A DNA stretch of 64,000 nt from Mayamaea pseudoterrestris (taxonomy: Eukaryota), in NCBI GenBank assembly GCA_027923505.1, contig BROI01000011.1:248001-312000 (forward strand), read 5' to 3'. The notes beneath the pieces are model-generated. The model worked only from the letters and a program-made list of their open reading frames with translations, was not told where the DNA came from and made no database searches. Position 1 is the stretch's first letter. Every line of letters starts with the position of its first letter. Shown here piece by piece: positions 10,729-58,600 of this stretch. The position numbers and the translations under genes were made by a program.

Positions 10729-12383
10729 GGCGTAATGAACATGTGGTAGTGCATGAGGTCAAATACAGTACTTCTTTAACTGCTGCCGATGAAGGGTCGC
10801 TGATCGCTCTCGGCCGGCCAAACGCGCGATGATGCTGACGATTCGGAGAGGGCGATGTGGTGTCGTAGTGGTTCTTGATAATGCGACGATCACATGTGGC
10901 GCGCCGGCGCGGGTAGCTTGGGTACTCACCAGTAGCTTCTACCATACGAGCGGTCAACAAAAAACCTCACGTGCTTCTTTGGTCGCCTCCACCGGTATAA
11001 AACATTTCTTAACAACTACCGGTACTGTTACATGTTTTAATTGTTCTCCTATGACAGCAGAGACCACAAGCCAGCTTGTCCCGATCCAGTATGTACGACT
11101 GGATCTTAGTAGGGGGCAAATCGTCCCTCGACGACGACCCGACCGCGTCAGCTATTATGCATACACCTGTGTCGTTGCTACACTGGCACATCGCAACCAC
11201 ATGCATTACACGTCAATACAGCAACATTCAAGATGGACATACTCAAGTACGAACTGTGACTCGGTGGTCAAGAAGTGCTGCGCCACGCCATTTTGACGTG
11301 ACAAACTGGGCCACGAATACCACTCAACTTGTCAGCATCACTGCCCATATAGCCTCAAAGACTGCATAACGCCGGACCCATGCAACAGAGAGGCCAAAAG
11401 ATCTCATAAACAATGTCCAATGCAGTTTTCCATGGTTGTCGTATAAGTAGAAATGTCCCAGAAAACGTCTAGATGACGCCTGGCATCCGAAAACGGTGGC
11501 ATGACGTTTCGTGATGACATTTATTTTGCGCCCACTTTCATTCACCGCACGCCAGAGGAAACCATCATTCATCGGATCTGATCACATAAATTTGATCGTT
11601 CATAAATCCGATCGTTCAACACATTTGCAAATCATATCAAGCAAGGTTTCTCATGATGCGATCAAGTTTTGCAATGCTTCGACTCTTGGCATTTGCTGCC
11701 TCGATTCGCTCGGTGCTCGGTGAAAGCGAAATTCATGTATTGGTGAGTGCGACGAGTGAGGATCAAGGACAATGATAATTGACTATGTTGCGAACTCGTA
11801 TGTGTTATGTGTTGGGGCATCATAAACATCGTCTCACCGTCTGACTTTTCTTGTTTCAAAAGACGCTTGGGCAAGAATCACCACTGGTACAGCAAGGTGT
11901 AAGTTTCAAGGAGACGGAACAAGACAGCTTTCACACCCACGTCACTCGTGGACTAGCAGCCGGTACGGCTCTAGGCACATGTACCACCCAGGATCAAACA
12001 AATTACAGGGATAATCAAGATTCTTATGGATTCTGGTTCAAACCTGAAGTGCAAATTCAAATTGTCGGGTTTCGAGTCGCTAGCTCAAGCGATTACACCC
12101 CAGCCGCCCAGAGCGTACAGTTGATTAAGCTGAGTGGTACTGGTACTGAAACAAGCTTCCAAGTAACATCGACACCGACAAACATAGTGCAATCGGTTTA
12201 TAAAGGTAAATGATTTGGATGCTTTGACATTTAATGCGAGACAAATGCTCACACTTTATACTTCTAAATATCGCCAGATATAACGCAAACTACCAGAGTT
12301 GATTTAACGGGTACAGACATTGTTACCGTGTCAGCTCGTCAGCGCATTGGAGTTTTAGGAATAACTGAAGCGCCTAATGGTCA

Positions 12384-12474
12384 CGGGTTTCCCCGTCTTA
12401 GCCACTACTTCCAGCTATTTGGAGAGTAAGGCATTTTACTTAATTTGCCTCCTCGCCGCCCCAAGGCGTGCGCC
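12384..12474 (-). repeat. Repeat B2 (terminal copy) of the element
   Basis: 12384-12417 equals 12791-12824, and 12420-12474 equals 12854-12908. Confidence 0.9.
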
Positions 12475-12492
12475 GAGGGACGGGAGGGTGGG

Positions 12493-12790
12493 TGCACTTA
12501 ATTCTATCTTCTTTCCTTGTCAAAAGCAGCACTCGAGGCAGCTCTCTAAAGGAATCAAAGGACAAGCGACTGTAGCAACAACAACAACAACAGGAGGGGC
12601 TGCTTGGAAGGAGCTTGCCTTCTTCAAAAGAATGGCTCCGAGCAGGGCGAAGGAGGATCAAAGGATGCTCTTCAACACGCTCAGGGGCTTATCTGCAACC
12701 ACGCAGCTTTCAAAGCCGTATGGTGTCGCCACGCTGGCGACTGTAACATATAGTGTAGTCTTTTCCTTCCGCTTTCAGCTGCGGCAAAGA
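12493..12790 (-). repeat. Repeat A2 (298 bp)
   Basis: Identical by eye to 19139-19436. Confidence 0.95.
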
Positions 12791-12908
12791 CGGGTTTCCC
12801 CGTCTTAGCCACTACTTCCAGCTACAGGGTTTTAAGGATGGCACACAGTTGGGTGGAGAGTAAGGCATTTTACTTAATTTGCCTCCTCGCCGCCCCAAGG
12901 CGTGCGCC
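12791..12908 (-). repeat. Repeat B1 (internal copy, with 29 nt at 12825-12853 where B2 has 2 nt)
   Basis: Matches B2 in two blocks of 34 and 55 bp and directly abuts A2. Confidence 0.9.
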
Positions 12909-12994
12909 TCCTTGCCACCCACTTTTCATCTTGGAGGACAAAGGACACCCAAAGAGACGGGTGGGAAACGAGCGAAGCGAGTGTGGTGGGTAGG

Positions 12995-14143
12995 TTAGAT
13001 GGGCTGCTGCGGGACAAAGGTGCCAGGGACCAGGGTGTAGGTGCCACCTTGGACCATGCGAGCAGCGTAGCCGGTGGTGTGAGCAGCAGTGCCATGCAGG
13101 TAGCGTAGCATTGCGTCAGAACGCCAGCGGCCCATCAATTTTATAATATTGTCATCGCAGCCGCCATTGAGGAGAGCCATAGCACCACCAGCGCGCAGGG
13201 AGCGAGCCTCAATGTCGGAGGGGTCTAAGCCCAGGGTAGGACCAAGTGCGATGACAGCATTGCGAAGGGTGCGCGTAATCTCCCCATTCTTGACGCCAAG
13301 AGGACGATTAGCACACCAGTAGGTTGCAAGCGGTGTGTGGGCAGTAGCACCATGCTCACGCAAATAAAGAATGCGCCGAGCAGCAGCAAGCACCGGACAG
13401 CAATGGAACAAGCCAGTGCGGCCTTGGCTAATGACTTCACCGCGGACACCATTTTTCTGATTATCAAATGTGAACGACACCTGGGAAGCCGCCAACAAAT
13501 CTGCAGCTGGTGCAGCAAAGAGATCAAGACGGCGGGAACCCAGACAGAGTTGGACTGCACCTAGGCGTAGTGGTGGGGTGTTGCCACCGTGGGTGCCAGT
13601 GTACTCACCAGGGCGCATCAAGAAGAAGAAACCCAGGGTGATGATGTCGGCAAAGGTTTGCAGGGCAGGTGAGCCTGGTCCAGAATAGGCTTGGGCCAGG
13701 ATGTGTTGCACAATGGTGACCGGAATTGGTTTGACGCGAGTAGGGGCTGGATCTTCGCGGTGCCAGCATTTAAATTGTTGCTGCAGCCGGTAGTCAATTT
13801 TGCCACAGGAATCTTGTCGAATGTCGTGGGACCCCATGCGGGCGAACGTCTGGCCCACCGCACGGATGGCGTCCGCCACTGTTGCAGCGCGGACGGGTTG
13901 ACCGCTGGCGGAGAGTCGGCCATCGCGGTAACGGGTTGCCCAGACTTGGAGAGTTGGGACTGGGTCATCCAAGGTTTTGAGGAAAGGGTCGAGATGGTGT
14001 TCAAGACAGAAGTCACACCATGAGGCCCAACGCTTGTCCGCGGAGGCGGCTCTTGAAGGAACGACTCCGGCACGGATCTGGTCTTGGACAGTGCGGTAAT
14101 CATGGTAGAAAGCATCGCGGGTCGTGGTTGGTACAGTTGCCAA
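12995..14143 (-). CDS. Tyrosine recombinase of the retrotransposon (no AUG at its 5' end)
   Basis: FFFLMRPGEY (catalytic R), QKNG (K), RSLRAGGAMAL, GRWRSDAMLRYL (W, catalytic Y). Overlaps the 3' end of pol by ~525 nt in another frame. Confidence 0.93.
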   Translation of the reverse strand: MATVPTTTRDAFYHDYRTVQDQIRAGVVPSRAASADKRWASWCDFCLEHHLDPFLKTLDDPVPTLQVWATRYRDGRLSASGQPVRAATVADAIRAVGQTFARMGSHDIRQDSCGKIDYRLQQQFKCWHREDPAPTRVKPIPVTIVQHILAQAYSGPGSPALQTFADIITLGFFFLMRPGEYTGTHGGNTPPLRLGAVQLCLGSRRLDLFAAPAADLLAASQVSFTFDNQKNGVRGEVISQGRTGLFHCCPVLAAARRILYLREHGATAHTPLATYWCANRPLGVKNGEITRTLRNAVIALGPTLGLDPSDIEARSLRAGGAMALLNGGCDDNIIKLMGRWRSDAMLRYLHGTAAHTTGYAARMVQGGTYTLVPGTFVPQQPI

Positions 14144-16977
14144 GGTAGAGGCTGTGGGTAATGAGTGTTAAAGTAGGTGAGTAATTCAGAGTCAGACAAA
14201 TGCCACAAACGGGAGGCCTTGTCCGCCATTTCATTCACTGGACCAGGAATGTAATCATGGAGGGGAACATAGCGATGTGTGCGTTGATGCAAGGACTGGC
14301 ATCTGAGGAGGTATGCTGCTGGGCCAGTGGAGGTAGTAGAGCCCTTGCGCTGCCAAGCGACAGCCGGAGTGTTGTCATGGGAGGTGTGAATGGTGCGCTC
14401 ACGTATGTCAAAATTGTGTGCCAAAACATCATGATGGAGAACCGTCCCAAACAATTCCAAATCACTATTGGTAATAGTGCCATGTGGGTTGTCAAAACTC
14501 ACCAAGTCCGCCTCAATGTGAGGAGGGAACCTGGCACGCCACAAGATTGGTTGTAGGGCATTGGTGGGCATGGAGACAAAGGCCACGGCCCCAGCGCCAC
14601 GACCAGATGCATCAGTAGTGCCCACAATAGCCGGGTCATCAGGAATCAATTCAGCAATGCGTGTTGGTCGTGTCTCTAGACCAGCCGCAATCCATCGAAA
14701 ATCTTCCAGAAAGTCATGCACTGCCTGGGTCAACCGCAAACGACCAGAGTGACCATCAGGATGGCGAAAGGCCTCTTGCAAGGAACTGAACAGACCACGG
14801 CTGCCAGGAATGGCCAAGGACATGGAGCGCAGCTCGCCCAAGAACTTGTGCCACTGCTTGGTGGCAATGCGGCGCCGAGTAGGAGGGATACTAGCTAGGA
14901 TCTCACGTAGGCGTTCCAGGCGATGGGCTGGCAATGCAACAGTCATGGCGACGGTATCAACCAACCAACCCAGGACTTGCTTGCGAGTGGTCCAAGCACC
15001 ATCTCCTTTGAGTAACTTCTTGACAGACACTGGTTCTTGACGAGCAGGTAAGTCAGTGGGCTCCAGTGGGCGTAGAACTTGGTCAAATGTGTGCAGGAGA
15101 ACACGTTGCAACCTTAGCAGCCGATCCGGATTGCCTTGGGCTAAAGCAATCAAGTCATCCACATACAAGTCATTGTATGCAACAGGACGCTGGAGGATAT
15201 CAGAGCGCTGGCGTGGAGCAGGAAGAGGCGCCACACTAGGATCATTGATGGGCATATCCTCCACAGTCACAATAGGTGGGACAGAGCCTTGTGCGGGCAC
15301 ACTTCCAGGCAGGGGTGTTGGAGTGGTGGTAGCTGGTAAGGTTTGAGCTTGTAACTCCAGACGGTGAGGCGGTGGTGACTTGGCACCACACTGGAAGGCT
15401 TGATTGGCTAAGTCACAAATGGTCTCTGTCACTGCACAGAAATAGGGTGGAGAATGAATCCAACCCATCGGCAGTGTGAGTGGAAAAGCAATCAGAGGCT
15501 CCTCACCAGCACACTGAGGAAACAAGACACCAAGCTTGGGGATATCTCCAGGCAGCAAACGCACACGGTAAAATCCATCAGCAATATCCAACTTGGACAT
15601 GTGGACGGGCCCATAGCGGGGGTTGGCTCGAGCAATGCGTTGCAGCAAACGATAAAAAGTGCGGCCAAACTGCATGGACTCCAGTGGCGCAACTGCAGCA
15701 GTGTCATCATTGACCCCAAAGTAGCTGTAGTCGGAGATGGTCCGAGGTCGCCGGTCGCGCTGAGGCACAACACCAAGTGGACTGAGTCGGAGTTGTTCCA
15801 TTCCAAGGACCTGTGAGGCTGGTAGGACGGTCCAGTGGCCTTTCTTGATCATGTCAGTGAACTCCTCCCGCAGAAAAGCAGTGTGTTCCAAGGCAGACTT
15901 GTGAGGGCCCCTCTTGAGCGCCATTTGCTTTTGTGCTAGTGTCCAAGGCTTTTTCTGCATAATGGCTGGTGCGCCACGTGCATCCAATTGGTGTAGCAAA
16001 TGTGCAGCTGGATGATCCAGATCCTTGACGCTGGGCTGTAAGTCAGAGGCGCCGCGGCTGGCCTCCACAAAGGCACGCCAATCCGGAGACAAAGCAAGAC
16101 GTGCAGATGCCTCCTGAACCAGCTGCCCCAATTCATCATCAAGTAGTTGCAAGGATGAGGTGTTGGTGTGTGAAGGCAACTTGGATGTAGGAAGACTGCC
16201 AGGCAAAGTGCAAGGAGGTGCAGATGCCTTTGGGGAGACCAGGTCGTGTGCCTTTGGCTGAGAGGCCCAGTGTGGAGCCCAGCCAGTTGCCATGGCAGGT
16301 GACTGTGCAGGTGCAGCAGTGGCTTCCATTGAGAGTGGAGCAGCCTTGCTGAATGCCAAGTGTGGTGCCATGGTAGGAGCAGCCTTGCTGGCAACCAAGT
16401 GTGGAGCCATGGCTTGGTGTGACACCACAACTGGGGAGGCGCCAGTACATGGGACTGGAGCAGCCACTGGAGAGGCATCAGCGGTGTGAAGGCCTGGAGA
16501 AGCCACATCCTCAGGTGCGACGGCGACAGACGATTCAAGGGGGCCTGGAGAAGCCACAGCCTGGTGTGTAGGTGTGACGGCAACAGATGGATTGGTGCTA
16601 GGAGCCAAGGTTGGACGACACTCAGGGCGGACATCTTGACGACTTGCTTGGAGTTGACTTGCTTGGACTTGGACCAGGGACGCAGTGGGACCGGGGACAG
16701 AGGCCAATTTGATTACATTCCTGGCAGCAGTAGGCAAGAGACGTGGTGTGGGCAGTAACAATGGTTCTTTCTGCACAACATGCACGCCAGCTTGCTTACC
16801 AAGTTCAGGAGATAGGACAGGTGACACAGTAGATTTAAAACGTTTACTACTGGGCGACTTAATTACTGGAACTACTTCTTCATTTTCGACAACTGGACCT
16901 GCGACTCTGGATGGTGGAACAGCAGAGGTTGCAGGCGTCAGCGGATTATAACATATAGGGATCCGCCCGCCGGACCG
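13618..16977 (-). CDS. Pol: Pro/Ala-rich linker + reverse transcriptase + RNase H; frame is open up to the gag stop codon
   Basis: RT motifs KLDIADGFYRV, LPMGWIHSPPYF, LYVDDLI. RNase H motifs TTDASG, NSDLELFG, HDNTPAVAW, NEMADKASR. No stop between 16977 and the ORF-track start at 16827. Confidence 0.93.
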   Translation of the reverse strand, partial: RSGGRIPICYNPLTPATSAVPPSRVAGPVVENEEVVPVIKSPSSKRFKSTVSPVLSPELGKQAGVHVVQKEPLLLPTPRLLPTAARNVIKLASVPGPTASLVQVQASQLQASRQDVRPECRPTLAPSTNPSVAVTPTHQAVASPGPLESSVAVAPEDVASPGLHTADASPVAAPVPCTGASPVVVSHQAMAPHLVASKAAPTMAPHLAFSKAAPLSMEATAAPAQSPAMATGWAPHWASQPKAHDLVSPKASAPPCTLPGSLPTSKLPSHTNTSSLQLLDDELGQLVQEASARLALSPDWRAFVEASRGASDLQPSVKDLDHPAAHLLHQLDARGAPAIMQKKPWTLAQKQMALKRGPHKSALEHTAFLREEFTDMIKKGHWTVLPASQVLGMEQLRLSPLGVVPQRDRRPRTISDYSYFGVNDDTAAVAPLESMQFGRTFYRLLQRIARANPRYGPVHMSKLDIADGFYRVRLLPGDIPKLGVLFPQCAGEEPLIAFPLTLPMGWIHSPPYFCAVTETICDLANQAFQCGAKSPPPHRLELQAQTLPATTTPTPLPGSVPAQGSVPPIVTVEDMPINDPSVAPLPAPRQRSDILQRPVAYNDLYVDDLIALAQGNPDRLLRLQRVLLHTFDQVLRPLEPTDLPARQEPVSVKKLLKGDGAWTTRKQVLGWLVDTVAMTVALPAHRLERLREILASIPPTRRRIATKQWHKFLGELRSMSLAIPGSRGLFSSLQEAFRHPDGHSGRLRLTQAVHDFLEDFRWIAAGLETRPTRIAELIPDDPAIVGTTDASGRGAGAVAFVSMPTNALQPILWRARFPPHIEADLVSFDNPHGTITNSDLELFGTVLHHDVLAHNFDIRERTIHTSHDNTPAVAWQRKGSTTSTGPAAYLLRCQSLHQRTHRYVPLHDYIPGPVNEMADKASRLWHLSDSELLTYFNTHYPQPLPWQLYQPRPAMLSTMITALSKTRSVPESFLQEPPPRTSVGPHGVTSVLNTISTLSSKPWMTQSQLSKSGQPVTAMADSPPAVNPSALQQWRTPSVRWARRSPAWGPTTFDKIPVAKLTTGCSNNLNAGTAKIQPLLASNQFRSPLCNTSWPKPILDQAHLPCKPLPTSSPWVSSS

Positions 16978-19131
16978 TCAATTGCGGGGCTCAAGATGCT
17001 CCAATGCCCAAGCCAACAAGGCATCATCAGCTGCCTGACTATGCTTGATGTGGTCGGCTTTGCGCTTGCACAATGAGTCACATTTGCCACGCAAATGATA
17101 AGCCATGCAGGGAGCAGTAGCGAGTCCTGGGATGCTATCCTTGGTGGGCCAACTCTTGTCCTCGGGATTCTTCCTCATCAAGCGGAGTTGGCGCTTGTCC
17201 TTCTGGAAGGCTTCAAAGGCTGGGTTGTAATCCAGGTTGATGACCACCTCATTCGCCTTGGTAGAAGGACTGTTGCCGCTTGCACCAGTCAAAGTAGAAG
17301 CTGCGGTGGTATGAGTGCCTTTGCTGTTGACACTGCTACCAACCTTGATGGATCCTGGGATGTCGGCTGCCTTGTTGAGTTGCTTGCTTAGTTGAGTGCA
17401 ATACTTGGCAGGCAAAGGAGGCAGGACAGAGAGATTGCCAATTTCCAAGTCCTCCATGACACTGGCCAGATCCGGGACGGCCTTGTAGGTGGGAGAAGTC
17501 TCCATAGTCTTGAACCAACGGTGGAAGCGGACTTGGACTGCTCGCAGCATGAGGGAGGGTCCCTGCTCACCAAGGCTAGCCAAGGCGTGCTGATAGGTAG
17601 GAATGTTGGCTTCAAATGTCTTGGTCCAATGCTCCAATGTGCAGACAAGCTCATGATCTTCCCCAAAGTACTGTGTGAGGAGGATTAGGTAGGCCCGGCA
17701 CATGCGTGCTGCCAGGAAGTAGTTGGTTGGCAGCACCACTTTGGAAGTAACAGCCTGGAGCTCCTTAGTATCTTGGTAGGTGATTGCATGACCGCCACTT
17801 AGGATGTCGTCATGCGCCTGCGCCGCTTGGAGGACTTCAGCTGACATGTTTGAGCCTTGGAGAACAGTCAGATTGGGTGGTACCATCATGAAGACATTGA
17901 TGCCTCCACTAAAATCATCCTTGTCGGCGCCTGCAAAGTCTCCATCTTGAAGCCGTCGGCTAATGTGCGGCGTCACAATAGGAGCATAGTCTTGGTTACC
18001 CGCTGCCACCGCACCCTCAACTAGATGGTCTTGCACTACCTTGCGCTTGTCCTTGTCAGCCGTGGCGGCTAGGAGGTGGTGCAGTTCGGGATAGCCACTT
18101 GGTGAAGCAATGCGTAGCATGATGCTAGTGCGCCGTAATTGTGTCGCAGTTAAAATGTCGGAGACTTTCTTGGGTGCCTTGGCTGCTTCGGCGCGAGCCT
18201 CTTCACGGGCTCGGACTTCGGCTGCATCATTAGCTTGGCGCTCCAGAAGGTTGACCAAAGCACTTTGATTTGGATCGGGTTGGGCGAACAAGTCCGGCAA
18301 GAGGCGCCGCAAGTTGGTCGAGGTGAACCGGGCCACATCGGCATCCCAGCTCGGTGCGGCTCGTGCAATTCCTGGAATAGTAGGCACTCCATCAGCGGCT
18401 CGGCAAGTAACCAATAGCTTTAGCCAAGTGCAAAGGTTGGTCAAGACATGTTCCAGCCCCGCATCAATAATAGCCGGCGCCAAACGGTCGAAGAATTCGC
18501 GCCGCGTAAAACCCTGCCCAATCACCAGCGGTGCGAACCGCACGGGCAAGGCCTGAACCATCCGCGCACGACCTTGGACAATGGTCGCATCGTCTTCGTC
18601 AACCGGCTGCAATGGAGGCAAATACTCAGTGCCAGCAGGCAAGCCTTGCAATCGCTCCATTGTTTGTGCCAATGTCGCTGGCACATTTGTGAAGTGCCCG
18701 TTCAATGGACTGAGATGAAAATCTGCCACCGTCAGTTCGACGAGGCCTGCCGTGCCTTGGAAAACCTCCGTACCAAAACCGATGACTCGATTGTCCCAGC
18801 GGTTGGTGCGACCTGCAACGGCAAGGTACCGCTGGGCCCCGACAATGGCGTGAATGCAACCATGCAGAGGCTGGTCGGCCTCGACCAAGGCAGCAACAAG
18901 GATGGGAGCGGTCTCCAAGGGCGTGTCGACCAAACCTTTAAAGCAATCAGCTGCAGTTAAAGGAGGATCGGCAGTGCGAGTGAGACCGTTCAAACCATTG
19001 TATTCACCGTTCAAAGGATCATTACTTGCCTGACTGTAACGGGCAAGGAAGGTGACCGTAGGGAGAGTGGCCCCGGCAAAAGGAATGGCGGCGGCTGCGG
19101 CAGCGGCGTCAGCTCCATTGACGGCGGCCAT
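16978..19131 (-). CDS. Gag-like ORF1 (717 aa) with C-terminal Cys/His finger
   Basis: AUG at 19131 just after repeat A1. C-terminal C-x8-C-x3-C-x5-H (CMAYHLRGKCDSLCKRKADH). First ORF of the element. Confidence 0.85.
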   Translation of the reverse strand: MAAVNGADAAAAAAAIPFAGATLPTVTFLARYSQASNDPLNGEYNGLNGLTRTADPPLTAADCFKGLVDTPLETAPILVAALVEADQPLHGCIHAIVGAQRYLAVAGRTNRWDNRVIGFGTEVFQGTAGLVELTVADFHLSPLNGHFTNVPATLAQTMERLQGLPAGTEYLPPLQPVDEDDATIVQGRARMVQALPVRFAPLVIGQGFTRREFFDRLAPAIIDAGLEHVLTNLCTWLKLLVTCRAADGVPTIPGIARAAPSWDADVARFTSTNLRRLLPDLFAQPDPNQSALVNLLERQANDAAEVRAREEARAEAAKAPKKVSDILTATQLRRTSIMLRIASPSGYPELHHLLAATADKDKRKVVQDHLVEGAVAAGNQDYAPIVTPHISRRLQDGDFAGADKDDFSGGINVFMMVPPNLTVLQGSNMSAEVLQAAQAHDDILSGGHAITYQDTKELQAVTSKVVLPTNYFLAARMCRAYLILLTQYFGEDHELVCTLEHWTKTFEANIPTYQHALASLGEQGPSLMLRAVQVRFHRWFKTMETSPTYKAVPDLASVMEDLEIGNLSVLPPLPAKYCTQLSKQLNKAADIPGSIKVGSSVNSKGTHTTAASTLTGASGNSPSTKANEVVINLDYNPAFEAFQKDKRQLRLMRKNPEDKSWPTKDSIPGLATAPCMAYHLRGKCDSLCKRKADHIKHSQAADDALLAWALEHLEPRN

Positions 19132-19138
19132 GGAGGAA

Positions 19139-19436
19139 TGCACTTAATTCTATCTTCTTTCCTTGTCAAAAGCAGCACTCGAGGCAGCTCTCTAAAGGAA
19201 TCAAAGGACAAGCGACTGTAGCAACAACAACAACAACAGGAGGGGCTGCTTGGAAGGAGCTTGCCTTCTTCAAAAGAATGGCTCCGAGCAGGGCGAAGGA
19301 GGATCAAAGGATGCTCTTCAACACGCTCAGGGGCTTATCTGCAACCACGCAGCTTTCAAAGCCGTATGGTGTCGCCACGCTGGCGACTGTAACATATAGT
19401 GTAGTCTTTTCCTTCCGCTTTCAGCTGCGGCAAAGA
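19139..19436 (-). repeat. Repeat A1 (298 bp), 5' end of the element
   Basis: Identical by eye to 12493-12790. Confidence 0.95.
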
Positions 19437-19620
19437 GGATGGAGGAAGACAGTGCGGTACTAAAACTACTTTCACCACATCAATACTTGACAAACAGGTC
19501 CAATTAAACGGGCTCAAAGTTAACAAGAGGCTTACAAGTGGTCAAGCAACTTCCAGCAACACATTTTCAGCATCAGTCATAGGAGTTATCGAGATATTCT
19601 ACACAACATCGGCCACCAGT

Positions 19621-20982
19621 ACACCTAGCCGCAGTCCAAGCAGGACCCCAAGCCGAATGCCAAGCAGGACACCGTCTCGCACTCCAAGCAGGACACCTTC
19701 TCGCATGCCAAGCAGAAGTCCTAGCCGTACGCCAAATACGTCGCCAAGCCGCACACCGAGCAGGTCACCAAGTAGGGCACCAAGCAGTAAACCGAGCGAG
19801 ACACCATCTCGCACACCAAGCAGTAGCCCTAGCCACATTCCTAGCATGACTCCGTCACAGTCCCCTAGTCGCATGCCTAGTGCAACACCTTCCCACATGC
19901 CCAGCCGGACGCCGTCTTTCACTCCAAGCAAGGCACCAAGCAAAACACCAAGTATGACTCCTTCGCAAGTTCCCAGTCAATCTCCGAGTGGTGCACCAAG
20001 CAAGACACCTTCTCAAACTCCAAGCCACATGCCAAGCCGCACACCCAGCAAATCTCCTTCTCGTTTTCCAAGCCACACACCATCACGCAATCCAAGCAGA
20101 GCTCCAAGCAATGCGCCAAGTCGGAGCCCTTCTTACAAACCAAGCCGAACACCTAGCCGTACCCCGAGTAGGTCACCAAGCCGCACGCCCAGCAGGACAC
20201 CTAGCCGCTCACCGAGCAGGTTTCCTTCTCGCATGCCAAGCAGAACTCCAAGCCGCACACCAAGCCAGAGCCCAAGTCGCACTCCTTCACGCACGCCCAG
20301 CAGGATGCCAAGCCGCGCACCAAGCAGGTCCCCTTCTCGCATGCCAAGCAGAACTCCGAGCCGCACACCAAGCAGGAGCCCAAGTCGCACTCCTTCGCGC
20401 ACGCCCAGCAGGACACCAAGCCGCACTCCAAGCAGATCCCCTTCTCGCATGCCAAACAGCACTCCGAGCCGTACCCCAAGCCGGACACCTAGCAGAACAC
20501 CTTCTCGCACGCCGAGCCGCAGTCCAAGCAGACTGCCCAGCAGAACCCCAAGCCGTACGCCAAGCAGGACACCATCTCGCACACCAAGCAGGAGCCCAAG
20601 CCGCACTCCTTCACGGACGCCAAGTAGGTCACCAAGTCGCACACCAAGCAGGAGCCCAAGCCGCACTCCTTCTCGCACTCCAAGCAGGATCCCAAGCAGG
20701 TTGCCAAGCAGAACCCCAAGCCGTACGCCAAGCCGCACTCCTTCTCGCACACCAAGCAGAGCACCGAGCCGCACCCCAAGCAGGACCCCAAGCCGTACGC
20801 CTAGCAGGAAACCTTCTCGCACACCAAGCAGAGCACCGAGCAGGACCCCGAGCAGGACCCCTAGCAGGAAACCTTCTCGCACACCCAGCAGAGCTCCAAG
20901 CCGTACGCCTAGCAGAAAACCTTCTCGCACACCGAGTAGGCAGCCAAGCCACACCCCCAGCAGGGCTCCCTCTCGCGCTCCA
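19621..20982 (+). repeat. Coding 12-bp degenerate tandem repeat, ~113 x-P-S-R tetrapeptides
   Basis: TPSR/SPSR/MPSR/APSR/KPSR units with heavy synonymous variation. Confidence 0.95.
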
Positions 20983-21603
20983 AATGGCTTGCGAGGTACC
21001 CCTAGTGCCCCAACATTTGACCCCGAGCCTGGCTTGGCCAAGGCTAGAAGCTTGGGCAAAGCTGCCGTAAAGAACTGTTGCAAGGGAACGAAACGCAAAC
21101 GCACAGCGACAATGGAAAGTGATTGCTTTGTTTCTTACCAAGCTGATGCCCTCACGACTGGTAAGAAGGAGAATGACTACATTGGCAAGGATGGCAAGAA
21201 AGTTTTCAAAAAGGAATATAAGAAGGGCGTCAAGGCTGGGAAGAAGGAAAAGGAGGGAACAGGCATGTGCTTGACTCCATAATGTCTATTAGTGGTTCAG
21301 GTGCGCAAGTCTCTGACAGTTTTTTCATTGTAAACTTTTTACATTAGTTGAATGCTATATTTCCATTAAAGTAGTAAAGTATTGTTGCTTCCATAAACAT
21401 TATAGCGACATTCAGCGCTCGCTTGACCGCGACAATCCTAAAATCGCGTCGCAGGGGTGATCACGAGTGTAACAATGCGACACGCTCAAGCCCTTCATTG
21501 TGCGCGACGACACTGATCTCCCAGCAGCCCAAAAGCTGCACTGTGTACCCAAATAGAGCATATTGCAAATGCAACAATAGATGAAGAGAGAGACAGAGCA
21601 CGT

Positions 21604-46918: not shown

Positions 46919-47594
46919 GCTTGAAATGAGAGTCGATACTGCAGTAGAGAAAAAGGGCGCGTCCCGATTGACTTGAGAGAGCGAGTGAATGATAGCTGCT
47001 GCTAGATGCGATGAACGATCCTTGCTGCTCCTGCGTGAATGTTGTGTCGACGCTTTGACCGAGCGAGGAAAATGACAAGCGCGGGGTTGCAGCTTTGGCG
47101 CACTCACGCGGCGTTCGCAAAACAGCCGTTGGTTGGTGGTGCGATACAAATTTACTTAACGCTGATGCTCCTTGGCGATTGACATGAGTCGATCGAGTCG
47201 ACAATCTCCCTCCGTTCGTTCTTGAAGACGACCATGGCGAATGATTGCGAAGGAATTGCGGGTCAACTTGCTGATAGGAAAGTATTCACGCAGCAATCAA
47301 CGAAAAGTAAGCTGCATAGACAGTTATTGAATCAAGTTGTTAAAGGTTTCAGCGACAGATAGGAGGATACATTGCCGCTTTGCATCTTTCGAATTTCTCA
47401 TTCATTCAAATCGGAAATCGGACGAAGTCAGACAAAGGCTTATCTAAGCAGTAGACAAGAGCGAATCGCTTCCTGTTGAACGTTCATCTGTTTTTGACTC
47501 GTCACAATTTTGGAGGCCATCTACCGTAAATCTTCACTTGCTTTCCAATACGCTCGATTCTATTGACATTTAAACAACAATCGACGCAACAATA

Positions 47595-50500
47595 ATGAGC
47601 AGCAGCACTCTTAACAACGAGGAGGAAGGCTACATTGACTACTCCTGCTCCACCCCCGTGGAACGATTGGCGCGAGACGTGGAAATGGTGCTGCAAAGCT
47701 GGCATGTCACCAATGGAAGTGATCGACACGTTTCGCTATTGAATCCAGATGCTGCAGACGAACGGAACGACTCCGTTTCGAAACTCCACGCGAGCAGCAG
47801 TAGCGGCAGTCTCGCATCGTCCACCAATGCAGCAAACATCAAACAAGTGGAGCAGCGCTTGATTCGATCGGAACGAATCACTTGGGACTGTTCGTCACTG
47901 TCGGACGCCTCCTCGTCGTTCCTTGACGCGCACGACGATTTATCCGGAGTGCGCGTCCAATTGCAACTGTCGCTGTGGGACGCACCGCCATCTAGTCGAT
48001 CACAGTCTCAACATGAGCAGCTACCATCAGAGTCAAATATAGATGATCAAGCTATGAAAATGAATGACAGTGGCCTTCCATATTCGTTGGACCGACCAGT
48101 CGCACTGGAAGCATTTCCATCGGATCTGTTTCGAAACATTTCGTCGCTCTTTGGTATTGGGCAATACATTACATTGTCGCTCTCTGCCGATGACTTCGAC
48201 GAAGAATGCAGCAGCAGCAACAACAATGAACTTATGCTACTTCAATCGCTACTACTAGAGACGGCCACAGGCGTACTGGAGCGGCATGCGTCGACACGAG
48301 TCGTCATGACGGTGCTGCAGAATATTTGGTCCAACTGGCTGCAAACGGCCTTGAACATGGCAGTGAGCAGTTGTCAGTGCGCCATGCCAGTCTTTGGAAT
48401 GTGGGCGAAATATAATGGCGACGGAGTGCCGATGAATATAACGCAGCAAGACGTAAACTACAGCTCCATCATGTGGTGGAAGCCGCTGCGCGATATTTTG
48501 ACTGCTGAACAAGAAACAACGTCCAACAGCAGCACTGATGACACCGGCGTGAACGAGGCAGCAGCACTTTGGCGAAAGATCCAGCAAAACTACTACCGCG
48601 CCCGTCGGCGCATCACGCCGCAACTCGAGGTGAAGATGCTGAATGTGCGGCAGGTTCCACCGATTTGCAACGGGCAGCTGTGCTCATCCGGCTCCTGCGC
48701 TACGTTTACCCTCAGCGTTGTTCCGTTTGACAAGGAGCGATACAGTCTCATGCACCTTTCGACGTGGGGTGACTTGTTGATGACGCAAGCCAATGTGAGT
48801 GAAGCAGCCTTGTGGGGCGCGAAGCATGCTTACAGCTGGAAGAAACCCCAACGTGATCCAAAATATCAAGCAATGGACGACTGGCGTGGCGATCATTCTA
48901 CTGATTGTGTCTCGGGGCTGCATGAATCGGCTCGAACGATTGATATTTATCGACAAGAAAATCGAAACCTTGCCACAATGCTGCTTGAAGATGCTTTGGG
49001 CGCCTCGGCCAAAAATCCCATGTGGGGGCCAGTGGACGATCCTATTGCGAGCGTTCGAGTAGAAACTATTTGGAACGGAATACAGCATCGTCCGTCTCCA
49101 GGCTCACCCAGTACAGCTGTTGATCCACTCCTTTCATTTCCGTTAAAGACACGATCACGCCAAATGAGCGAATCTGATTGGAAAGAAATGCAAGAGTCTG
49201 TGGAGGGTATGATCCTTGATCCGCATAGGTCGAGCTTGTTTAAAGTTCTGGTGGAATTTGATTCCGAGACACCACATGCCTCTCTTGCAACGACAATGCG
49301 ATGCATTTTGGCGGCGTTGATTCGGTCAGCTACATTGCCTCCAGAAACATTGTGTTCGCATCTTATTGATATTCCCCTTATTCAAGGGTGGGATAACATA
49401 GCTGGGAATCTCGTGGCCCAAAGTTTAGCGGAAGCTGCGAATGTTTGCCCGGCAACGCAAGCGCTGGTGGCAGCAATGGACTGGGCAAACGCTGCTACGG
49501 ATATGATTGATGCGACGGAAGCATACGATATTGTTCGGCGGTTATTTGACGACGACTTTACACCCGACTTCCCTGCTCCGCCGGACAATTCGCCAAAGTT
49601 AACACCTCGACAATCGCTTTGCTTCAGAAACGCTGCGCCTCCTGGTCGGCTCCTCTCGCTTCTCTTCATGCACATGGCAAGAGTTCGATCGCCATCGTCG
49701 ATCGCGCTGGTCTGGAATGTGGTCGTTCAAGAGCTTCGAGAAAGATGGGAAAACAAAGAGAATATACCAAATATGAAATTTGCCTTGGGCCTTGATCCTA
49801 TTTACGAAAGGCCAAAAACCAAGCAGCGCTTCTCAGTCTGCAAATCAGTCGCCGCGGTGCCTGTCACGGACTTCGTACAGGATCCAGATAACAGCTACTG
49901 CTTGATCGGGCAAAAGCTCCAAGTACTCAACATTTGTGTTGCTACGGCATCGGTTGTCAACCATCATACTGAGCACTCTGAAAAGCGTCCTCGGCTTGCT
50001 TCATCCATTGAGTCGCCTTTGTCAACGAGCCTTTTGTCTGGCGACAGTGATAATGAAGAATTTTTCGATGCATTCGAGGGGGAGCACGATTTGACAATCA
50101 GCAATGACAAAAATGGCAGCGTTACGCAAAAATCGTCAAGTGTTTCTCGTCTGACTAGCGCAAAGCCCTTTCGCGAGCCTATTCTCCAGCGTGCATATCC
50201 ACTGACTGATGATGTAATTTCTGAACGAAAGATAATGATTGCAAAGCAGGACAGCGGCTTTACAACGGATCTATCGAGTCAGAAGCTTGAACTCATCCAT
50301 CGCTTTCAGCGACCAAAGCTGCTGAGTGATATGCAAGCGTTCAAGGCGTCAAACCCCGACGTTGTGTTCGATGATTTCGTAGCTTGGTACGGAGGCCCTG
50401 CAGATCCACTGCCAGAGTATCGTGACGACGAACCACTGTCGGCATCTAGTCGAAGCATTAGTCGTCGGAGGTCATCGCGAGCTAATTCTATGATGGAAAC

Positions 50501-51302
50501 TGCAGAGGAGCTCGACAAGGCAGCCGATTCGATCCGAGCACTGAATGCGACGCGTGTCTTTTGGCAGGAAACGTGGAATGCGGCAGAGCCTAGGACCGTA
50601 GCTGATCAGGAGCCGTTATTCGATGCAGTCGTCATGGCTGAAATGGCGCTGGATTACCTGGATACAATTCATCCTGCGAATCTTTTATGTCAGATCATGG
50701 CAGCTAATTTAAATGCAGCTTATTTTGCCCTGGTAAGCTCCGCTGGAGTCGCAATGCAAATTGGTGCTGTATCTCGAGTATTGCAAGAACTTCGCGAGAC
50801 CAGTGAAACAGTTATTAAGCTGCTTTCGTCTGATGTACTCGCTGCAGCGACGGCTAGCCGATCCAGGTCCAAACGAAGCTTACCAACAAGCATCGCCTCC
50901 ATTGACACACTTGCATCCTGTGAACGAGCCTGCGCACTCGTGGGCGAGTCAGAGGTCATAGTGTCTCGTGCCATGTACGTATATCACTTCGAGTTGATGC
51001 CTCCTTGAACTGCACCTCATCTCACTTCTATCGCATTCTATCCCAGCTCGCTCCTAAACAAACTTCCCGGTCAGTTTGATTTGATCGAAAACCTTCTTCG
51101 GAACCCCGAAGGAAGTTGGGTCAGTGTTACACCAGAAACCTCTCGAAACGCCGTACTCCATGCCATGGCTAGCCAACAACCCGAGGCGCGCGAGTATATG
51201 ATACGCGGACAGGATCCGTTGTCGCCGTGTCAGCTATGCGTTTCATACGGACCAGCAAACTCCACCGTGACCATTGCATTGGCCAGATGTTGGCGTATGT
51301 AA
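47595..51302 (+). CDS. RAB3GAP1: Rab3 GTPase-activating protein catalytic subunit-like; exons 47595-50974 and 51047-51302 (1211 aa)
   Basis: N-terminal DYSCSTPVERLARDVE..LQSW, APPGRLLSLL, W...VQELRERWE, LIGQKLQVLNIC, LLSDMQAFKASNP...FDDFVAWY, QEPLFD. Confidence 0.85.
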
Positions 51303-52679: not shown

Positions 52680-55600
52680 CTACTGGCAAATCTCAACATG
52701 CGCCGTCAAGTACTCGCGCGAATCGCTGCCTAGCGGAAAGGTCGAGTAAGATTGCCATGCATTTCGAGGCGAAACTGATTCGTCAAACACGTAGCTTGTG
52801 AGAGAAACAACTCCTGAAGTAAGTGGGAACATGTGAGGGTCGTTTGCCAGAGTTGCAACGGTATCGGCGAGGCAGATACCCAAATCGAGAACCTGGCCAC
52901 CGTCGCTGCCACGGCATTCACCGGCATAGAAAGTATACTCAATCGATGAGCCTGTCGCGGCGTCGGAATTCAAGATAATACTGAACTGATCCGGTGAAAT
53001 TGTTGCGTTACCAATCACCGTTCCAGAGTCTTCATCGCAACCTGAGGCTCCTACAATGACAACGCAGTCATCCACCAAGCCATCTTCAGCTGTATACTCG
53101 ATATTCCATCCCCACACTCCTCGTCCTTTCGTTTGCGTGTAACAGTTGAAGGATGGATCTGAGAAGCAAGTGGATCTACCCGGACAATAGACGTAGGCGT
53201 CTTCACAAGCGGCGTTGCTAGTCGGCTCAAGTGTCGCTCCACTGTTCGAAGTGGGAATAACATCGACTGTTCTTGTTGGAGATGACGTTCCTCTACTGAT
53301 TGAAGTAGTGGTTGGGTTCGGCGTTGGCGATGCCGTCGGAGCCGCTGTTGGAGCAACTGTCGGAGAAAGTGTCGGGCTGGTAGTTGGTGCATCCGTTGGT
53401 GCGTTTGTCGGCTGAGCCGTAGGTATTTTGGTTGGCGAGCCCGTTGGAGTCTTGGAAGGAGCACTTGTGGGATCTGAAGTTGGATTCGCGTCTGATTCTC
53501 CTGATTCAACAAATGGAGGCTGTGTCGATGAGGAGATCGAGGGGCTTCCCGCGGGTGATGGGAGTCCAGGAACTTGGCCACCGTCAACGCATTCGCAGAT
53601 CTCGGCATGTGCAGAGAGGTAGAGAGGCTCGCCAAAGTTTGACAGCTCAAAGATTTGGTATTTTGTACCATCTTGTGTCGTCCAATTGCTACTTGTCTTT
53701 CGTTCTTGATTTTTCGTATCAAAACTGTATTTCGTCTTTGGGTATCGAAGTTCGTTTGCCACAAGAGGATATGTCGAGACGTCGTACGGTGTAGGAGAAG
53801 AACACTCGGCTGAACCTCTCTGATAGGCAGCTCCTCCGTCAGACATTGGACATGTACCAACATACAATTGGAAGGTGGTGCTTGCATACTCGGAACGAAG
53901 GTACCATGTGAACGAGGAGTCTGATATTTCCGCATAGCCCAGAAGAAGAGTTGAATCGGCATCCACGTCACAATTTGGCACATTAGCTAAAATTTGGCAT
54001 TCAAGTGTTTCCGATTCATAGTCTATGGCGGATAAATCAATTGACCAGCCACTTGCATCTGATGAAGCTTCTACTCCGTCAAACTCGTTGAAACATTTTG
54101 ACGCAGTCGCGCCACAGTAAACGAATGCATCAACACAGTTGCCAAGTTCGCCGTAGTTCCCCGTTGTAGGAACTGTAACCGGTTTAGAAGCAGATGGGAT
54201 GTTGGATGATGGGGAAGTGGCGGTGGTCGGACTGTCAACTGGCTGCGATCCTGTTGGAACCTTTGATTCTTCGCCAGACACGGGCGCTGTCGTCGGAGAA
54301 GCTGCGGTGGTCGGACTTAAAACAGGCTGACTCGTAAATGGTGAGTCCGTGATGCTACCACTTGGAAGATTTATTGGCCTGGAACTCTTAGTTGGCGTAA
54401 CAAAACCTGAAGGCGAAGGCTCCATTACGAGAGTGGGAATAACTGATTTGACTCCAGCAGTTGGTGCACCGACTGGTCGCTTGGTTGGTGTTGCATCTAA
54501 AAGTGTCGGAGAGACGGTTACCCCGGACGGTGAATCAAAAACAAATGATGGCTCTGCTGTTGTTGAAGCGGGTGTTAAAGTTTCGCTTCCAGCAGGCGCA
54601 TTGATAGCCGAGGTTGGATGCGATGTCAACCCGACACTTGGAGCTCTTGTACCCATCTTCATGTTGCTTGACGACGGCATAGCTGTCTGCGCTTTCGTAA
54701 CGGGCACTGGTGTGGCCCGAGATAAGCGTGTCGGAGACGAACTTGGACCGTTCGTAGAGCCAACAAAAGATGTGGGTACTTGTGTTCCAGTACTAGGTTT
54801 ATCTGGACTCGCCGATGGTGATGCGGTTGTGGCCGATGGAAGAGTCTGCGTAGGGTTGGTAACGGTTGGGCTTGCCATAACATTTGGGGTGGAAGAAGCC
54901 ATGGTAGGAAGCTTTTGGATGTTCGACGGCATGTTGGTGGCAGCGTTGGTTGTGGGGCTTGTAGGAACACTCGGCAACGTCGGGCTAGAGGGGCTTGGTA
55001 TCGTGGGAAACATTATAGTTGGGCTCTGTGGCACACTAATTGCTGGAGAAGTTGACCCTTCTTCGTCAAAAGCGGGAGTTGGTGCGAGAGTGCTATCATT
55101 TGCAGTTGGTACTGATGGCGAAGACAAAGAGGTTGGCGTCGGCTGGGAAGCGGCAGTCGGGCTTCCAATGTCGGGCATGCCCGTCGTGCCGGAAGGACTG
55201 GTAGTAGGCACTGTGGGAGAGGCGACCGGTGCGATAGAAGTCGCCAATGGAGCCCGAGTGATAGCTACGCTTGGCGCAGATGGTGGGGAAGGCGTATCAG
55301 GTGGTCCTTGTATCAGCGTTGGGATTGCAGTTGCCGTAGAAGGCGACGGTTTTCCGTTTGCAACAGGAGATGCACTTGGACCTGCAAAACTTGGCGGCAG
55401 AGTCGGAAGAGCAGCTGGCTGTAATGTTGAGGTGGGTGTTGCATCAGCGGCAGTTGGTGCAGATGTAACTAATCCCAACGGCTTGGGTGTAACTCCCTGG
55501 ATAAGACTTGGACGAGCGGTGGTGCTCGTAGAAGTGGGAAGTGTAGGCACGCTTGCCGATGGTGACACGGGGGTACTGCCTGTAGGTGCACTCAATGGAG

Positions 55601-58600
55601 GAAGCGATTGTTCGCCAGAAAAGGTCGGCGATGGAGCCGTGATTGCGCCGCTTGGAGGAGAGGGCGATGCGAGTGGCGAGCTCGTTGGCGATCCTTCTCC
55701 TGGGACCGTCGTTACAGATGGTGGAACTCCAATTGGGGCACCCGAAGCCGAAGGGGCAAGTGGGACGTTGCTGCTGCTGGGCGTTGCCGGCATATCCGAG
55801 CACATGCAAATCTGGGCGTGGCCTGACAGGTACACTTGCGTTCCATGGCTCGTCACGTCAAATGTTTGATACGAACCCCAAGGGCTGGTGGTAAATTGCG
55901 TCTGGTTGCCAATATCAAAGCCATAGTTTGTCACTGGGGTGGGTAGAACGCCTGAATCAAGAGGGTAATTTTCAACATCATACGGACTGTAGGCTGTTGA
56001 GCATTGGCCAGTCGTGCTCTCTCCAACGCCGCCGTCGCTCATCAAGCAGCTGCCGACGTAAGTTTGGAAGCTTGTGCTAGACCACCCAGACTTGACAAAG
56101 TAAGTAATGCTTGATTCGGTAATTTCGGCCGTCCCGGCAACAAAGGCACCACTAGCGTTGATATCGCAATTTTGGGCGCCGGCGATCAGTTGGCATACCA
56201 GTGGGCCGTCGGTAAAACTGACGCCCGAAAGGTTGATGCTCCATCCGCTGCTGCTAGCATCCATTGGTGGCTGAACGCTATCAACGCTGTCAAAGCAGAC
56301 GGAAAGCTCTTCACCACAGTAGACAAACGTATCGACACAAACATCCGGAACCATGACAGTTGGAGATGTTTGCATGATGGAAGGCATGCTCGTGACAGCG
56401 GTCGGAACTGGCACTGACACTGTTGGAATACCGTTTGTAGGACTTGACATACTAACCGGAGCAGATGATGGCGTTGTGATGGGTGGCAAAGTCTGTGATC
56501 CGACCGTGGGTGTGTAAGTGTCGAGACCCGATGAAGTTGGTGACAGTGCCGTTGGAACTGCTAGTGAGACGGTTGGAGCGGGCGTCGAAGTTGAGATTGG
56601 CGGCAGAGTTACGATTGTAGGGGTAGCTTGCGAAACAGTTGGTGCCAAAGTGTTGTCAGTTCCAGATGGAATCGGTGGCAAGGTCGCAGTTGTTGGCGTA
56701 ACCTGTGTCAGTGTTGGAGTGGGCGTCGACATTGGGATTGGAGGCAAGCTTTGCGACCCAACGGTAGGAACATTTGTCGTGGTGGTGCCAGCTGGAATCG
56801 GAGGCAAGTTGGATGCGGTGGGAGCGGCCTGCGAAGGTGATGGAACATCAGTTGACGATGATACCGGAGGCAAGGTTTGCGACCCAACGGTAGGAACATT
56901 GGTCGTGATGGTGCCAACTGGAATTGGAGGCAAGGTGGATGCGGTGGGAGCGGCCTGCGAAGGTGATGGAACATTGGTTGATGGTGAGACTGGTGGCAAA
57001 GTCTGTTGTCCAACTGTCGGATTATTAGTTGCAACAGTTCCCGATGAAATCGGCGGCAAGGTCAAAGTAGTTGGAGTGCTTGGTGACGATGCGATCGGAG
57101 GCAACGTTTGTGCTCCGGTTGAGGGGTTGCTTGTTGTGGTTGTACCCGATGGAATGGGCGGAAGCGACTGCAATGTTGGCGTCGGCAAGATGGTATCGAC
57201 CGTTGACGGAATCGGCGGCACAGTAGCAAACGTCGGCAAGAGAGTGCCAGGAATACTGTTTGACGGTACTGGTGTAACTTGCTGGACAGAAGGAGGTGTT
57301 GACGTGTTCGTTGTTGGGCCAGTTGGTTTAAATGTTGTCACGGTCACTGGTGGACCCATCACGGTAGGCGACCCCATTGCAGGAGTCGGATTCATTGATT
57401 CAGTAGTTGCTACTGGTGCGAGCGTCAATGACCCTGGCGCCGCTGTAGGAAAGTCACCACTGCCGCTATTACCAAAGCAAACTTGGGCATGCGCACTTAA
57501 ATACACGGGCGATCCGTGGCCAGATAGTGCAAGTGTTTCATAGGTCGGTCCCCAAAGCGCAGCCTGCGTGTACTGGCCTTGGTTGGTAACGTCAAAGACA
57601 AAGTTATTTGTTGGCGTCGACAGGTCTCCGCTAAACAATGGATACAAGGAAACATCGTAAGGATTGTAATTGTCGGAACATTCGCCACCCGTTTGCTCGC
57701 CATAGCCGCTGTCGCTCATCAAACAGTTTCCGGCGTAAACATGAAAGGAAGTGCTCGTCGAAGGTGTTTTTGTAGTAAAGGAAACACTCAAGTCGGTAAT
57801 GTCAACGCTACCCACTACAGTGGCAGTAGCAACGTTGCATTGGTCCGCTCCCGAAAGTAGCTGACATGTCAATGGCCCGCTAGTTTCAAAGTTGTAGTCC
57901 GTAAGGTTGATGCTCCAGCCGTTACCAGACACCATGGCACCTGGAGGAGGCGCAATGCTAGCAACACTATCGAAACAGACGGAGATTGTTTCACCGCAGT
58001 AGGCAAAGGCATCGACGCAGCCTAAAGTGTTTGGCAGTGTTGGAGACGGCGTGGAAAGAGTTGGAAAGCTTTGACCAAGGGTGGGCATCATGGTCCCTGA
58101 TCCAGAAGGAGCGACGAGATCCAAAGTTGGTACTGCCGTCACTGTACCTGGCGGCACAGTCGTGGTTGGACCGAAAGGTGAAGGCGCAAGAAAGTCAATC
58201 GTTGGCATACCAGTCGTCATTGTGGGATTAGCAGGTGTTGGACCCGTTGCTCCTGGAAGGGTAGTTGGACTGGCTGGAATCAAAGCTAGTGTTGGTGCCG
58301 GTGTGGAAATGACAGTAGTTGGCGGCTGTGGAATTAGTGGTGTGGGAGCTGCCGGCGTGGTTGCACCTGGACTGGGTGCAACAAAGTCAAAGGATGGCAT
58401 GTTTGTTCCTGGCGTACCTTGGTCGACAAACGCTGGAGTTGGCACAATGGTGTCAACGGAAGGTGCAGGCTGCACCGTGTCAACACCGGCAGGAGGAATT
58501 GGTTGATCAAGCGTTGGTGCTGGAGCATCAGTTGCAAAGTCTGGAAACGGCGGGCTGCTTGCAGGATTGAACGTCCACTCGTAGGGAGGCATGGTCAATG

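Follow-up and report, generated by a model that had tools for sequence, protein, structure and literature searches.

Organization of the Element

A 64-kb stretch of the genome of the diatom Mayamaea pseudoterrestris (contig BROI01000011.1, positions 248,001 to 312,000) carries on its minus strand an intact, young tyrosine-recombinase (YR) retrotransposon with split direct repeats. The whole of this stretch is referred to here as the window, and coordinates are counted from its first nucleotide. The gag-like and pol reading frames of the element share one frame and are separated by a single UGA stop codon followed by a short stem-loop, and this junction is probably a site of programmed stop codon readthrough. 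The element spans about 12383-19436, with its parts in the order A1-gag-pol-YR-B1-A2-B2. Comparison of the window with itself by blastn defines the repeats, all on the minus strand. The 5' terminal direct repeat A1 (298 bp, 19139-19436) is 100% identical over its 298 bp, and in direct orientation, to the internal/3' direct repeat A2 (12493-12790). The internal repeat B1 (12790-12908) and the 3' terminal repeat B2 (12383-12474) are 77% identical over 119 columns. Because the 298-bp repeats are identical and a sister copy described below has a nearly identical pol, the element looks recently active. No second copy is present in the 64-kb window.

Three open reading frames (ORFs), delimited stop to stop under the standard genetic code, make up the coding portion of the element, again on the minus strand. 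The frame of ORF1, which is gag-like, comprises 721 codons from stop to stop (19143-16981), and from the first ATG at 19131 a protein of 717 amino acids (aa) with a C-terminal zinc knuckle is encoded (16981-19131). The UGA that ends it (16978-16980) is the proposed readthrough codon. ORF2 (pol, 13621-16977) continues in the frame of gag for 1119 codons and closes at the stop 13620-13618; it comprises a linker, a reverse transcriptase (RT), an RNase H-like region and a tail predicted to be disordered. ORF3 (12998-14167, 390 codons), the predicted tyrosine recombinase, was recognized from weak Pfam matches and a fold search. With respect to pol it is in frame -1, and the two overlap by 547 nt; it ends at 12998, upstream of B1-A2-B2 on the minus strand.

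The gag-pol Junction

At the junction the minus strand reads ...CGC AAT TGA CGG TCC GGC GGG CGG ATC CCT ATA TGT TAT AAT CCG CTG ACG CC.... An initial annotation, made from the window sequence, had placed the end of gag at the TGA at 16980-16978, had described the same frame as open to 13618 with its first AUG roughly 190 codons past the stop, and had predicted a Gag-Pol fusion of 1837 aa. Each of these points is borne out by the minus-strand sequence and by a walk along the frame, the first in-frame AUG of pol being codon 190 and the length of the fusion following from 717+1+1119. The hairpin that was described at 16971-16934, beginning 6 nt past the stop, likewise folds as drawn, giving (((((((((((...((((...)))))))))))..)))) at -14.1 kcal/mol. 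It is built from a closing helix GGCG/CGCC, an inner helix GGCGGAU/AUCCGCU and a tip UAUA/UAUA. The spacer that separates it from the stop, CGGUCC (16972-16977), is formed by the first two codons past the UGA.

Conservation of the Stop Codon and Reading Frame

Relatives of the gag-like protein are numerous. A search of 1.84 billion representative proteins (E<=1e-3) returned 485, and relatives of pol in public data exceed 1100. Many of the pol relatives come from contigs of 6-7 kb, a size close to that of a complete element. The best 150 of these 485 proteins do not exceed 768 aa and show no fusion to pol, and the majority are full-length, with ends that coincide with that of the query. An alignment of 30 gag proteins, 19-41% identical to the query, places every C terminus within about 20 aa beyond the zinc knuckle and an L..W motif. 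Related loci at the DNA level were collected from metagenome contigs scanned with an alignment of a gag subgroup, which yielded 25. The peptide patterns used in this search sit inside gag and exclude the region of the stop, so that there was no selection at the stop itself. The ORFs of each locus were mapped by tblastn with the proteins of the window and by a walk along the gag frame. Two other scans returned no relative: a three-sequence gag alignment against metagenome contigs (336 pattern matches) and the gag subgroup alignment against viral contigs (148 pattern matches).

Each of the 19 related loci that extend to the end of gag, L012 with its 3'-truncated site included, has TGA as its gag stop, which makes 20/20 with the window; identity of the gag proteins across these loci is only about 25-45%. 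These counts bear directly on the possibility that the TGA is a private nonsense mutation or a sequencing error within a single gag-pol ORF, or a codon read as sense in the host. The bare in-frame arrangement in one copy is all that speaks for such an account; a private mutation or sequencing error had also been named in the initial annotation as a possible refutation. When related copies were inspected, as had been proposed there, no such outcome was seen: the stop stands at the same place in every relative examined. With regard to sequencing error, contigs of three public runs show the same letters across 16920-17034, with no variant; those of a fourth run lack coverage there. With regard to a sense codon, gag, pol and the long host ORFs of the window contain no in-frame TGA under the standard code. 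Taken together, the comparative data and the absence of in-frame TGA from long ORFs exclude a private mutation or a reassigned TGA.

The frame beyond the stop is conserved as well. In 13 of the 16 loci that hold both the end of gag and pol, pol lies in the gag frame; merging three pairs identical at the junction leaves 10 of 13 distinct sequences. The exceptions, L001, L011 and L020, are decayed copies in which gag or pol is interrupted by further stops or by frameshifts. Beyond the TGA the frame is open for 863 codons in L013 and 810 codons in L018, compared with 1119 in the window, and it is open to the end of the contig in L014-L017, L019 and L021. Internal gaps in an alignment of the linker from six loci measure 3 or 9 nt. 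Identical sequence around the gag stop was found in different metagenome records (L006/L007, L015/L019, L016/L017 and L012/L018), and therefore the same element families recur across samples.

Such conservation of frame has also to be set against a different account of the junction, in which pol is made separately and the hairpin and its context serve RNA packaging, dimerization, a pause for Gag folding or the stability of the mRNA. Synthesis of pol would then begin at or near its first AUG (pol codon 190), through internal initiation or reinitiation, or on an RNA that is spliced or subgenomic. The annotated pol of the sister copy does begin at this AUG, the linker past the stop evolves almost neutrally at the protein level, and the YR ORF of the same elements clearly requires some non-standard route of expression. 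Separate synthesis, however, needs neither the gag frame nor openness from the first codon past the stop, yet both are found in 10/10 distinct relatives that are not decayed, and the indels of the linker are multiples of three. There is no AUG near the stop in the window, and among the linkers of the second subgroup, as shown over 67 codons, only that of L013 contains any Met. In the contigs of the public runs, no joint across the gag-pol junction was found. Separate production of pol is accordingly regarded as unlikely, a judgment to which the fixed position of the hairpin, described next, also contributes.

A Conserved Signal Downstream of the Stop

The region past the stop was compared in 15 distinct sequences, comprising the window and related loci, from which hairpin segments of 32-44 nt running from GGC to GCC were taken; the spacer was checked by requiring GGC at offset +9 in each. 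All 15 sequences share the TGA, the GGC at +10..+12 and the closing GCC, and in all of them the spacer is exactly 6 nt, with the sequence CGGTCC in 7/15. The base next to the stop is C in 12/15, and CGG directly follows the stop in 8/15. The claim in the initial annotation of a TGA-CGG context thus extends to the relatives. Over the 30 nt upstream of the stop the mean column identity is only 0.49. The protein sequence of the linker cannot be aligned between subgroups, though the nucleotides after the stop are conserved, and the constraint past the stop acts at the nucleotide level. An exact distance of 6 nt between UGA and hairpin is expected of an element positioned by the ribosome and argues against a role confined to RNA packaging or stability with pol made separately.

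Folding without constraint closes the hairpin with GGC/GCC in 13/15 sequences, and hairpin z-scores are negative in 14/15 (range -4.29 to +0.55). Within this frame the inner helices differ in sequence between lineages and keep their pairing. As read from the folds, the inner helix is GCGGAU/AUCCGC in the window, GCGGAA/UUCCGC in L005 and L004, GCGGG/CCC(U)GC in L009, GUGGUUCC/GGAACCAC in L001, GGGAUC/GAUCCC in L013, GGAC/GUCC in L018 and GGAUCA/UGAUCC in L020.

A UGA followed by a hairpin could in principle also be decoded as selenocysteine. UGA is the sole stop used (20/20), diatoms have selenoproteins, and a stem-loop about 6 nt past a UGA resembles the selenocysteine redefinition elements. 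Scanned permissively with Rfam (E up to 5), the two strands of 12000-20000 showed no SECIS family, and an unrelated bacterial small RNA model at E = 1 was all that matched. There is, moreover, no apparent functional reason for a selenocysteine in a disordered linker, and UGA-CGG with a 3' stem is a documented context for near-cognate readthrough (PMC3159437). Decoding as selenocysteine is therefore considered highly improbable, and readthrough by a near-cognate tRNA is preferred.

Tests of Covariation in the Hairpin

Two approaches were taken to the pairing of the hairpin. In the first, a covariance model (R1) was built on a MAFFT alignment with one fixed structure. R1 gives one match per locus, at the gag stop. 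In the 64-kb window its single match is 16931-16980 on the minus strand (34.7 bits, E 3.9e-6), and it also finds the 3'-truncated site of L012, which is outside the training set but locally identical to L018. The second approach, a half-swap test devised for this analysis, is free of register: the 3' halves of the hairpins are exchanged among sequences, the chimeras are refolded, and the native mean energy is compared with that of 5000 permutations. For all 15 sequences the native mean is -15.5 kcal/mol vs -11.5 kcal/mol after swapping (sd 0.77), and 0/5000 permutations reach the native value. The same holds for nine representatives (0/5000), and with seven representatives 2/5000 permutations do so, which is about the rate of the identity permutation alone. 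On 41-nt windows at the +9 offset the native mean is -15.7 vs -12.5 kcal/mol when swapped (0/5000). At eight control offsets (-200 to +100) between 1267 and 4833 of the 5000 permutations equal or better the native mean, and native energies are -2 to -9 kcal/mol. Covariation of the stem in relatives, which the initial annotation had proposed as a check, gave a mixed outcome: the half-swap test is positive at the hairpin and null at the control offsets, and a count of pairs in fixed columns does no better than shuffled sequences.

Several observations weigh against readthrough or reduce the support for it. In the fixed-structure analysis of 15 sequences, pairing reaches 69.4% vs 67.5% in shuffled alignments and is equalled by 82/500 shuffles; the covariation score is equalled by 153/500. 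The closing helix never varies and hence holds no information on covariation, and the inner helices change register between subgroups, so a single column-wise structure describes these hairpins poorly and the case for covariation rests on the half-swap test. The hairpin of the window is unexceptional by itself. Its 38 nt alone give a z-score of -1.84, with 10/200 shuffles folding equally well; with 4-nt flanks these values become -0.99 and 27/200, and the 91-nt context around the hairpin has a z-score of 0.00. It is comparison with relatives that gives the hairpin its significance, and the window alone does not. An alternative hairpin, CUGGGGA...UCCCCAG, competes with it in the second subgroup (L013-L021) and is the unconstrained fold in L018 and L020. 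Substitutions in the linker lack a clear excess at third positions (225/205/248 by codon position), and therefore only the open frame and the indels in multiples of three speak for a coding linker. Many of the loci are closely related, and locus counts overstate the number of independent lineages. The contigs of the public runs, finally, are near-identical copies, probably of the same element, and lend no independent support.

Proteins Encoded by the Element

Pfam profiles recognize the proteins of the element only weakly. Pfam was run at its default threshold, at which gag, pol and YR have no match, and then permissively at E up to 10, where weak matches appear to RVT_1 (E 0.069, pol aa 451-527), Phage_integrase (E 0.17) and zf-CCCH_12 (E 0.058). 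In the proteins of the element Pfam detected neither an integrase nor a protease family. A methyltransferase domain was not found by Pfam even at E up to 10, an absence that by such methods is weak evidence. The pol and YR alignments, used as profiles against PDB sequences, gave 0 matches each. The gag family is large and consists of proteins of about 700 aa with a knuckle C-x3-H-x4-C-x3-C-x5-H near the C terminus, and the knuckle residues C679, H683, C688, C692 and H698 are invariant in the 30 aligned sequences.

Structure models of ORF2 and ORF3 were built on alignments with relatives and compared by Foldseek. In pol, a Pro/Ala-rich linker of about 280 aa separates the gag stop from the RT, and the RT contains YVDD at aa 605-608. 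The model of pol aa 330-1119 matches the RTs of Moloney murine leukemia virus (MMLV), XMRV, HIV-1 and Ty3, the best being that of MMLV (E 6.9e-9); the quality of this model is poor, with a mean predicted local distance difference test (pLDDT) score of 53. RVT_1 was detected at E 1.9e-4 in 1/6 relatives scanned with Pfam, and PF00078 is precomputed on 10/120 pol homologues among the matches listed. On the evidence of the predicted fold, ORF2 carries a reverse transcriptase. The motifs of the RNase H-like region (TDAS...) were picked out by eye in the translation. The last 150 aa of the pol frame (13621-14070), which overlap the recombinase frame, have a pLDDT of about 25, are predicted to be disordered and may be no functional part of pol. 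The ORF3 model is better (mean pLDDT 69.6) and matches Cre, Tn1549 Int, Xer and lambda Int. The best match is Cre (E 6.9e-6, probability 1.00), and protein clusters neighboring ORF3 include some with PF00589 on 29-86% of their members. By its predicted fold ORF3 is thus a tyrosine recombinase, in place of a DDE integrase.

One public protein from M. pseudoterrestris, P0153, is identical to ORF2 codons 190-1119 at 920/930 positions, and therefore a near-identical sister copy of the element exists. The gene model of P0153, which corresponds to 13621-16410 of the window, begins at the first internal AUG, pol codon 190, and omits the 189 codons upstream. P0153 is labelled a hypothetical protein, and the gag relatives are likewise without names. 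With pol models begun at an internal AUG, standard annotation misses the in-frame link between gag and pol.

Genomic Surroundings

Adjoining the element, the window contains at 19600-21000 about 1.4 kb of degenerate internal repeats with 64-86% self-similarity at many offsets. This tract is covered by long open frames on both strands, for example 19405-21282 on the plus strand (625 codons). Very long open frames elsewhere in the window, at 52680-60674 on the minus strand (2664 codons) and at 47574-51008 on the plus strand (1144 codons), suggest that the host genome is gene-dense and intron-poor.

A Model for Gag-Pol Expression

The best reading of the junction, judged from sequence comparison, is programmed readthrough of the UGA of the class designated Type II, giving a Gag-Pol fusion, and its probability is estimated at roughly 0.8. 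Most ribosomes on the full-length RNA would terminate at the gag UGA and release Gag. A minority would decode the UGA by a near-cognate tRNA, insert an amino acid, and continue in frame to produce a fusion of Gag, linker and RT/RNase H of about 1837 aa. The event may be stimulated by three features: the 3' context UGA-C, usually within UGA-CGG-UCC; the stem-loop, whose GGC...GCC base begins exactly 6 nt past the stop; and the placement of the stem at the mRNA entrance of the ribosome while the UGA occupies the A site. The hairpin would thereby raise the fraction of ribosomes that read through. The frequency of readthrough, whatever its efficiency, would set the ratio of Gag to Gag-Pol, as in gammaretroviruses, and the fusion would bring RT into Gag assemblies. 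The anatomy of the element, the RT and YR folds, and the presence of the UGA, its context and spacing, the frame and the potential for pairing in distant relatives together support the interpretation of readthrough that the initial annotation had offered for a YR retrotransposon.

Expression of the recombinase poses a related problem. In 7/7 elements that hold both frames (window, L004, L005, L006, L013, L016 and L018) the recombinase is encoded in frame -1 with respect to pol, and the overlaps in the six relatives range from 394 to 1195 nt. The first Met of the YR frame is codon 110 in the window and falls at codons 8-179 in relatives, after conserved recombinase sequence has begun. A -1 slippery heptamer shared at a homologous place in the pol/YR overlap was not found among the seven elements. 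The window sequence UUUAAAU (element position 5787) was considered as a slippery site and rejected, since it lies downstream of conserved YR sequence.

One subgroup also has a second in-frame TGA, found at L004:4067, L005:2668, L006:1912, L007:2536 and L009:565, some 110-155 codons into the pol frame and inside a conserved motif, L-*-x-x-G-A-P. The homologous site in the window (15982-15984, minus strand) is the Asp codon D332 of pol, and the other subgroup has Ala. The base next to the second TGA is C in 4/5 loci (3/4 distinct sequences), and apart from this codon the remainder of pol is open in L004 and L005. The second TGA could be another recoding site or a shared defect. A broader proposal is that UGA, 6-nt spacer and GGC...GCC form a recoding device that is old and shared throughout a large clade of protist YR retrotransposons, with several recoding events stacked and the proportions Gag > RT > recombinase set wholly by recoding on a single RNA. 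This proposal is tentative and is considered rather doubtful in its full extent.

Relation to Known Readthrough Systems and Retroelements

Among textbook examples are readthrough of the gag stop in gammaretroviruses and, in several RNA viruses, UGA-CGG with a 3' stem. In Type II readthrough, UGA-CGG or UGA-CUA is followed by a conserved 3' stem after a spacer of 7-12 nt, and carriers include nsP3/nsP4 of alphaviruses, the replicases of tobra-, peclu-, furo- and pomoviruses, and VP9/VP9' of coltiviruses (Firth et al., 2011; PMC3159437). The statement in the initial annotation that this is the signal of alphaviruses and tobra/furo-like viruses agrees with that account. The diatom element resembles these viruses in its UGA, in the C or CGG directly 3' of it, in a conserved stem a few nucleotides downstream, and in the prediction that the minor fusion product carries the polymerase. 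It differs in its spacer, which is 6 nt and so shorter than the 7-12 nt reported (PMC3159437), and in its compact hairpin of about 32-44 nt, unlike the stems of alphaviruses and virgaviruses, which enclose a loop of 100-150 nt. The carrier also differs, in that it is a DNA-integrated tyrosine-recombinase retrotransposon of a diatom, in which the signal is known here from sequence alone.

With gammaretroviruses the element shares gag and pol in one frame, a single stop between them, structured RNA at a short fixed spacer, and the likely purpose of setting the Gag:Gag-Pol ratio. In murine leukemia virus (MuLV) the gag-pol signal is a UAG with a pseudoknot 8 nt downstream (PMC3159437). The element has UGA-C instead of UAG-G, and in contrast to the MuLV pseudoknot its structure is predicted as a simple hairpin, no search for a pseudoknot having been made. 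Unlike gammaretroviruses it has neither protease nor DDE integrase by Pfam, and integration would proceed through the tyrosine recombinase.

Retrotransposons with tyrosine recombinases are usually described as having overlapping or separate ORFs. Definitions of the Ngaro and PAT-like groups, based on split direct repeats and domains, are taken from published descriptions (PMC3266345, PMC4157794). By its repeats, gene order and domains, and not by a phylogenetic tree, the element is best described as Ngaro-like. It has split repeats A1...B1-A2-B2, the internal ones lying past YR, as in Ngaro (PMC4157794), the gene order gag, RT/RNase H, YR, and no detected methyltransferase. The lack of a methyltransferase match separates it from the PAT-like elements of the DIRS group, with which it shares split direct repeats. 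Unlike Ngaro, it has a long pol/YR overlap, as do the six relatives. The initial annotation had characterized DIRS/Ngaro ORFs as usually overlapping; this holds for pol/YR of DIRS1-like elements and of the present element and does not hold for Ngaro, whose ORFs are usually without overlaps (PMC3266345).

Significance for YR Retrotransposons

A search of the literature on DIRS, Ngaro and tyrosine recombinases together with readthrough found no report of gag-pol readthrough; the founding Ngaro and DIRS papers lie outside its coverage, and an earlier mention there is possible. The literature searched likewise yielded no account of how YR retrotransposons make RT relative to Gag, and the Ngaro and PAT passages and other literature covered are silent on any gag-UGA-pol junction that is in frame and has a conserved hairpin. 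The mechanism of readthrough is itself of a known kind; what appears to be new is that protist YR retrotransposons, throughout one large family, carry it with an alphavirus-like signal. If the reading is correct, a third order of retroelements would join those known to use gag-pol recoding, and such a signal would have had its origin in an algal element integrated into DNA, or have been shared with it. The annotation of YR elements, in whose public models pol now begins at an internal AUG and lacks 189 codons, would gain a rule, and a natural cassette for readthrough, compact at about 50 nt, would be available for tests in diatoms.

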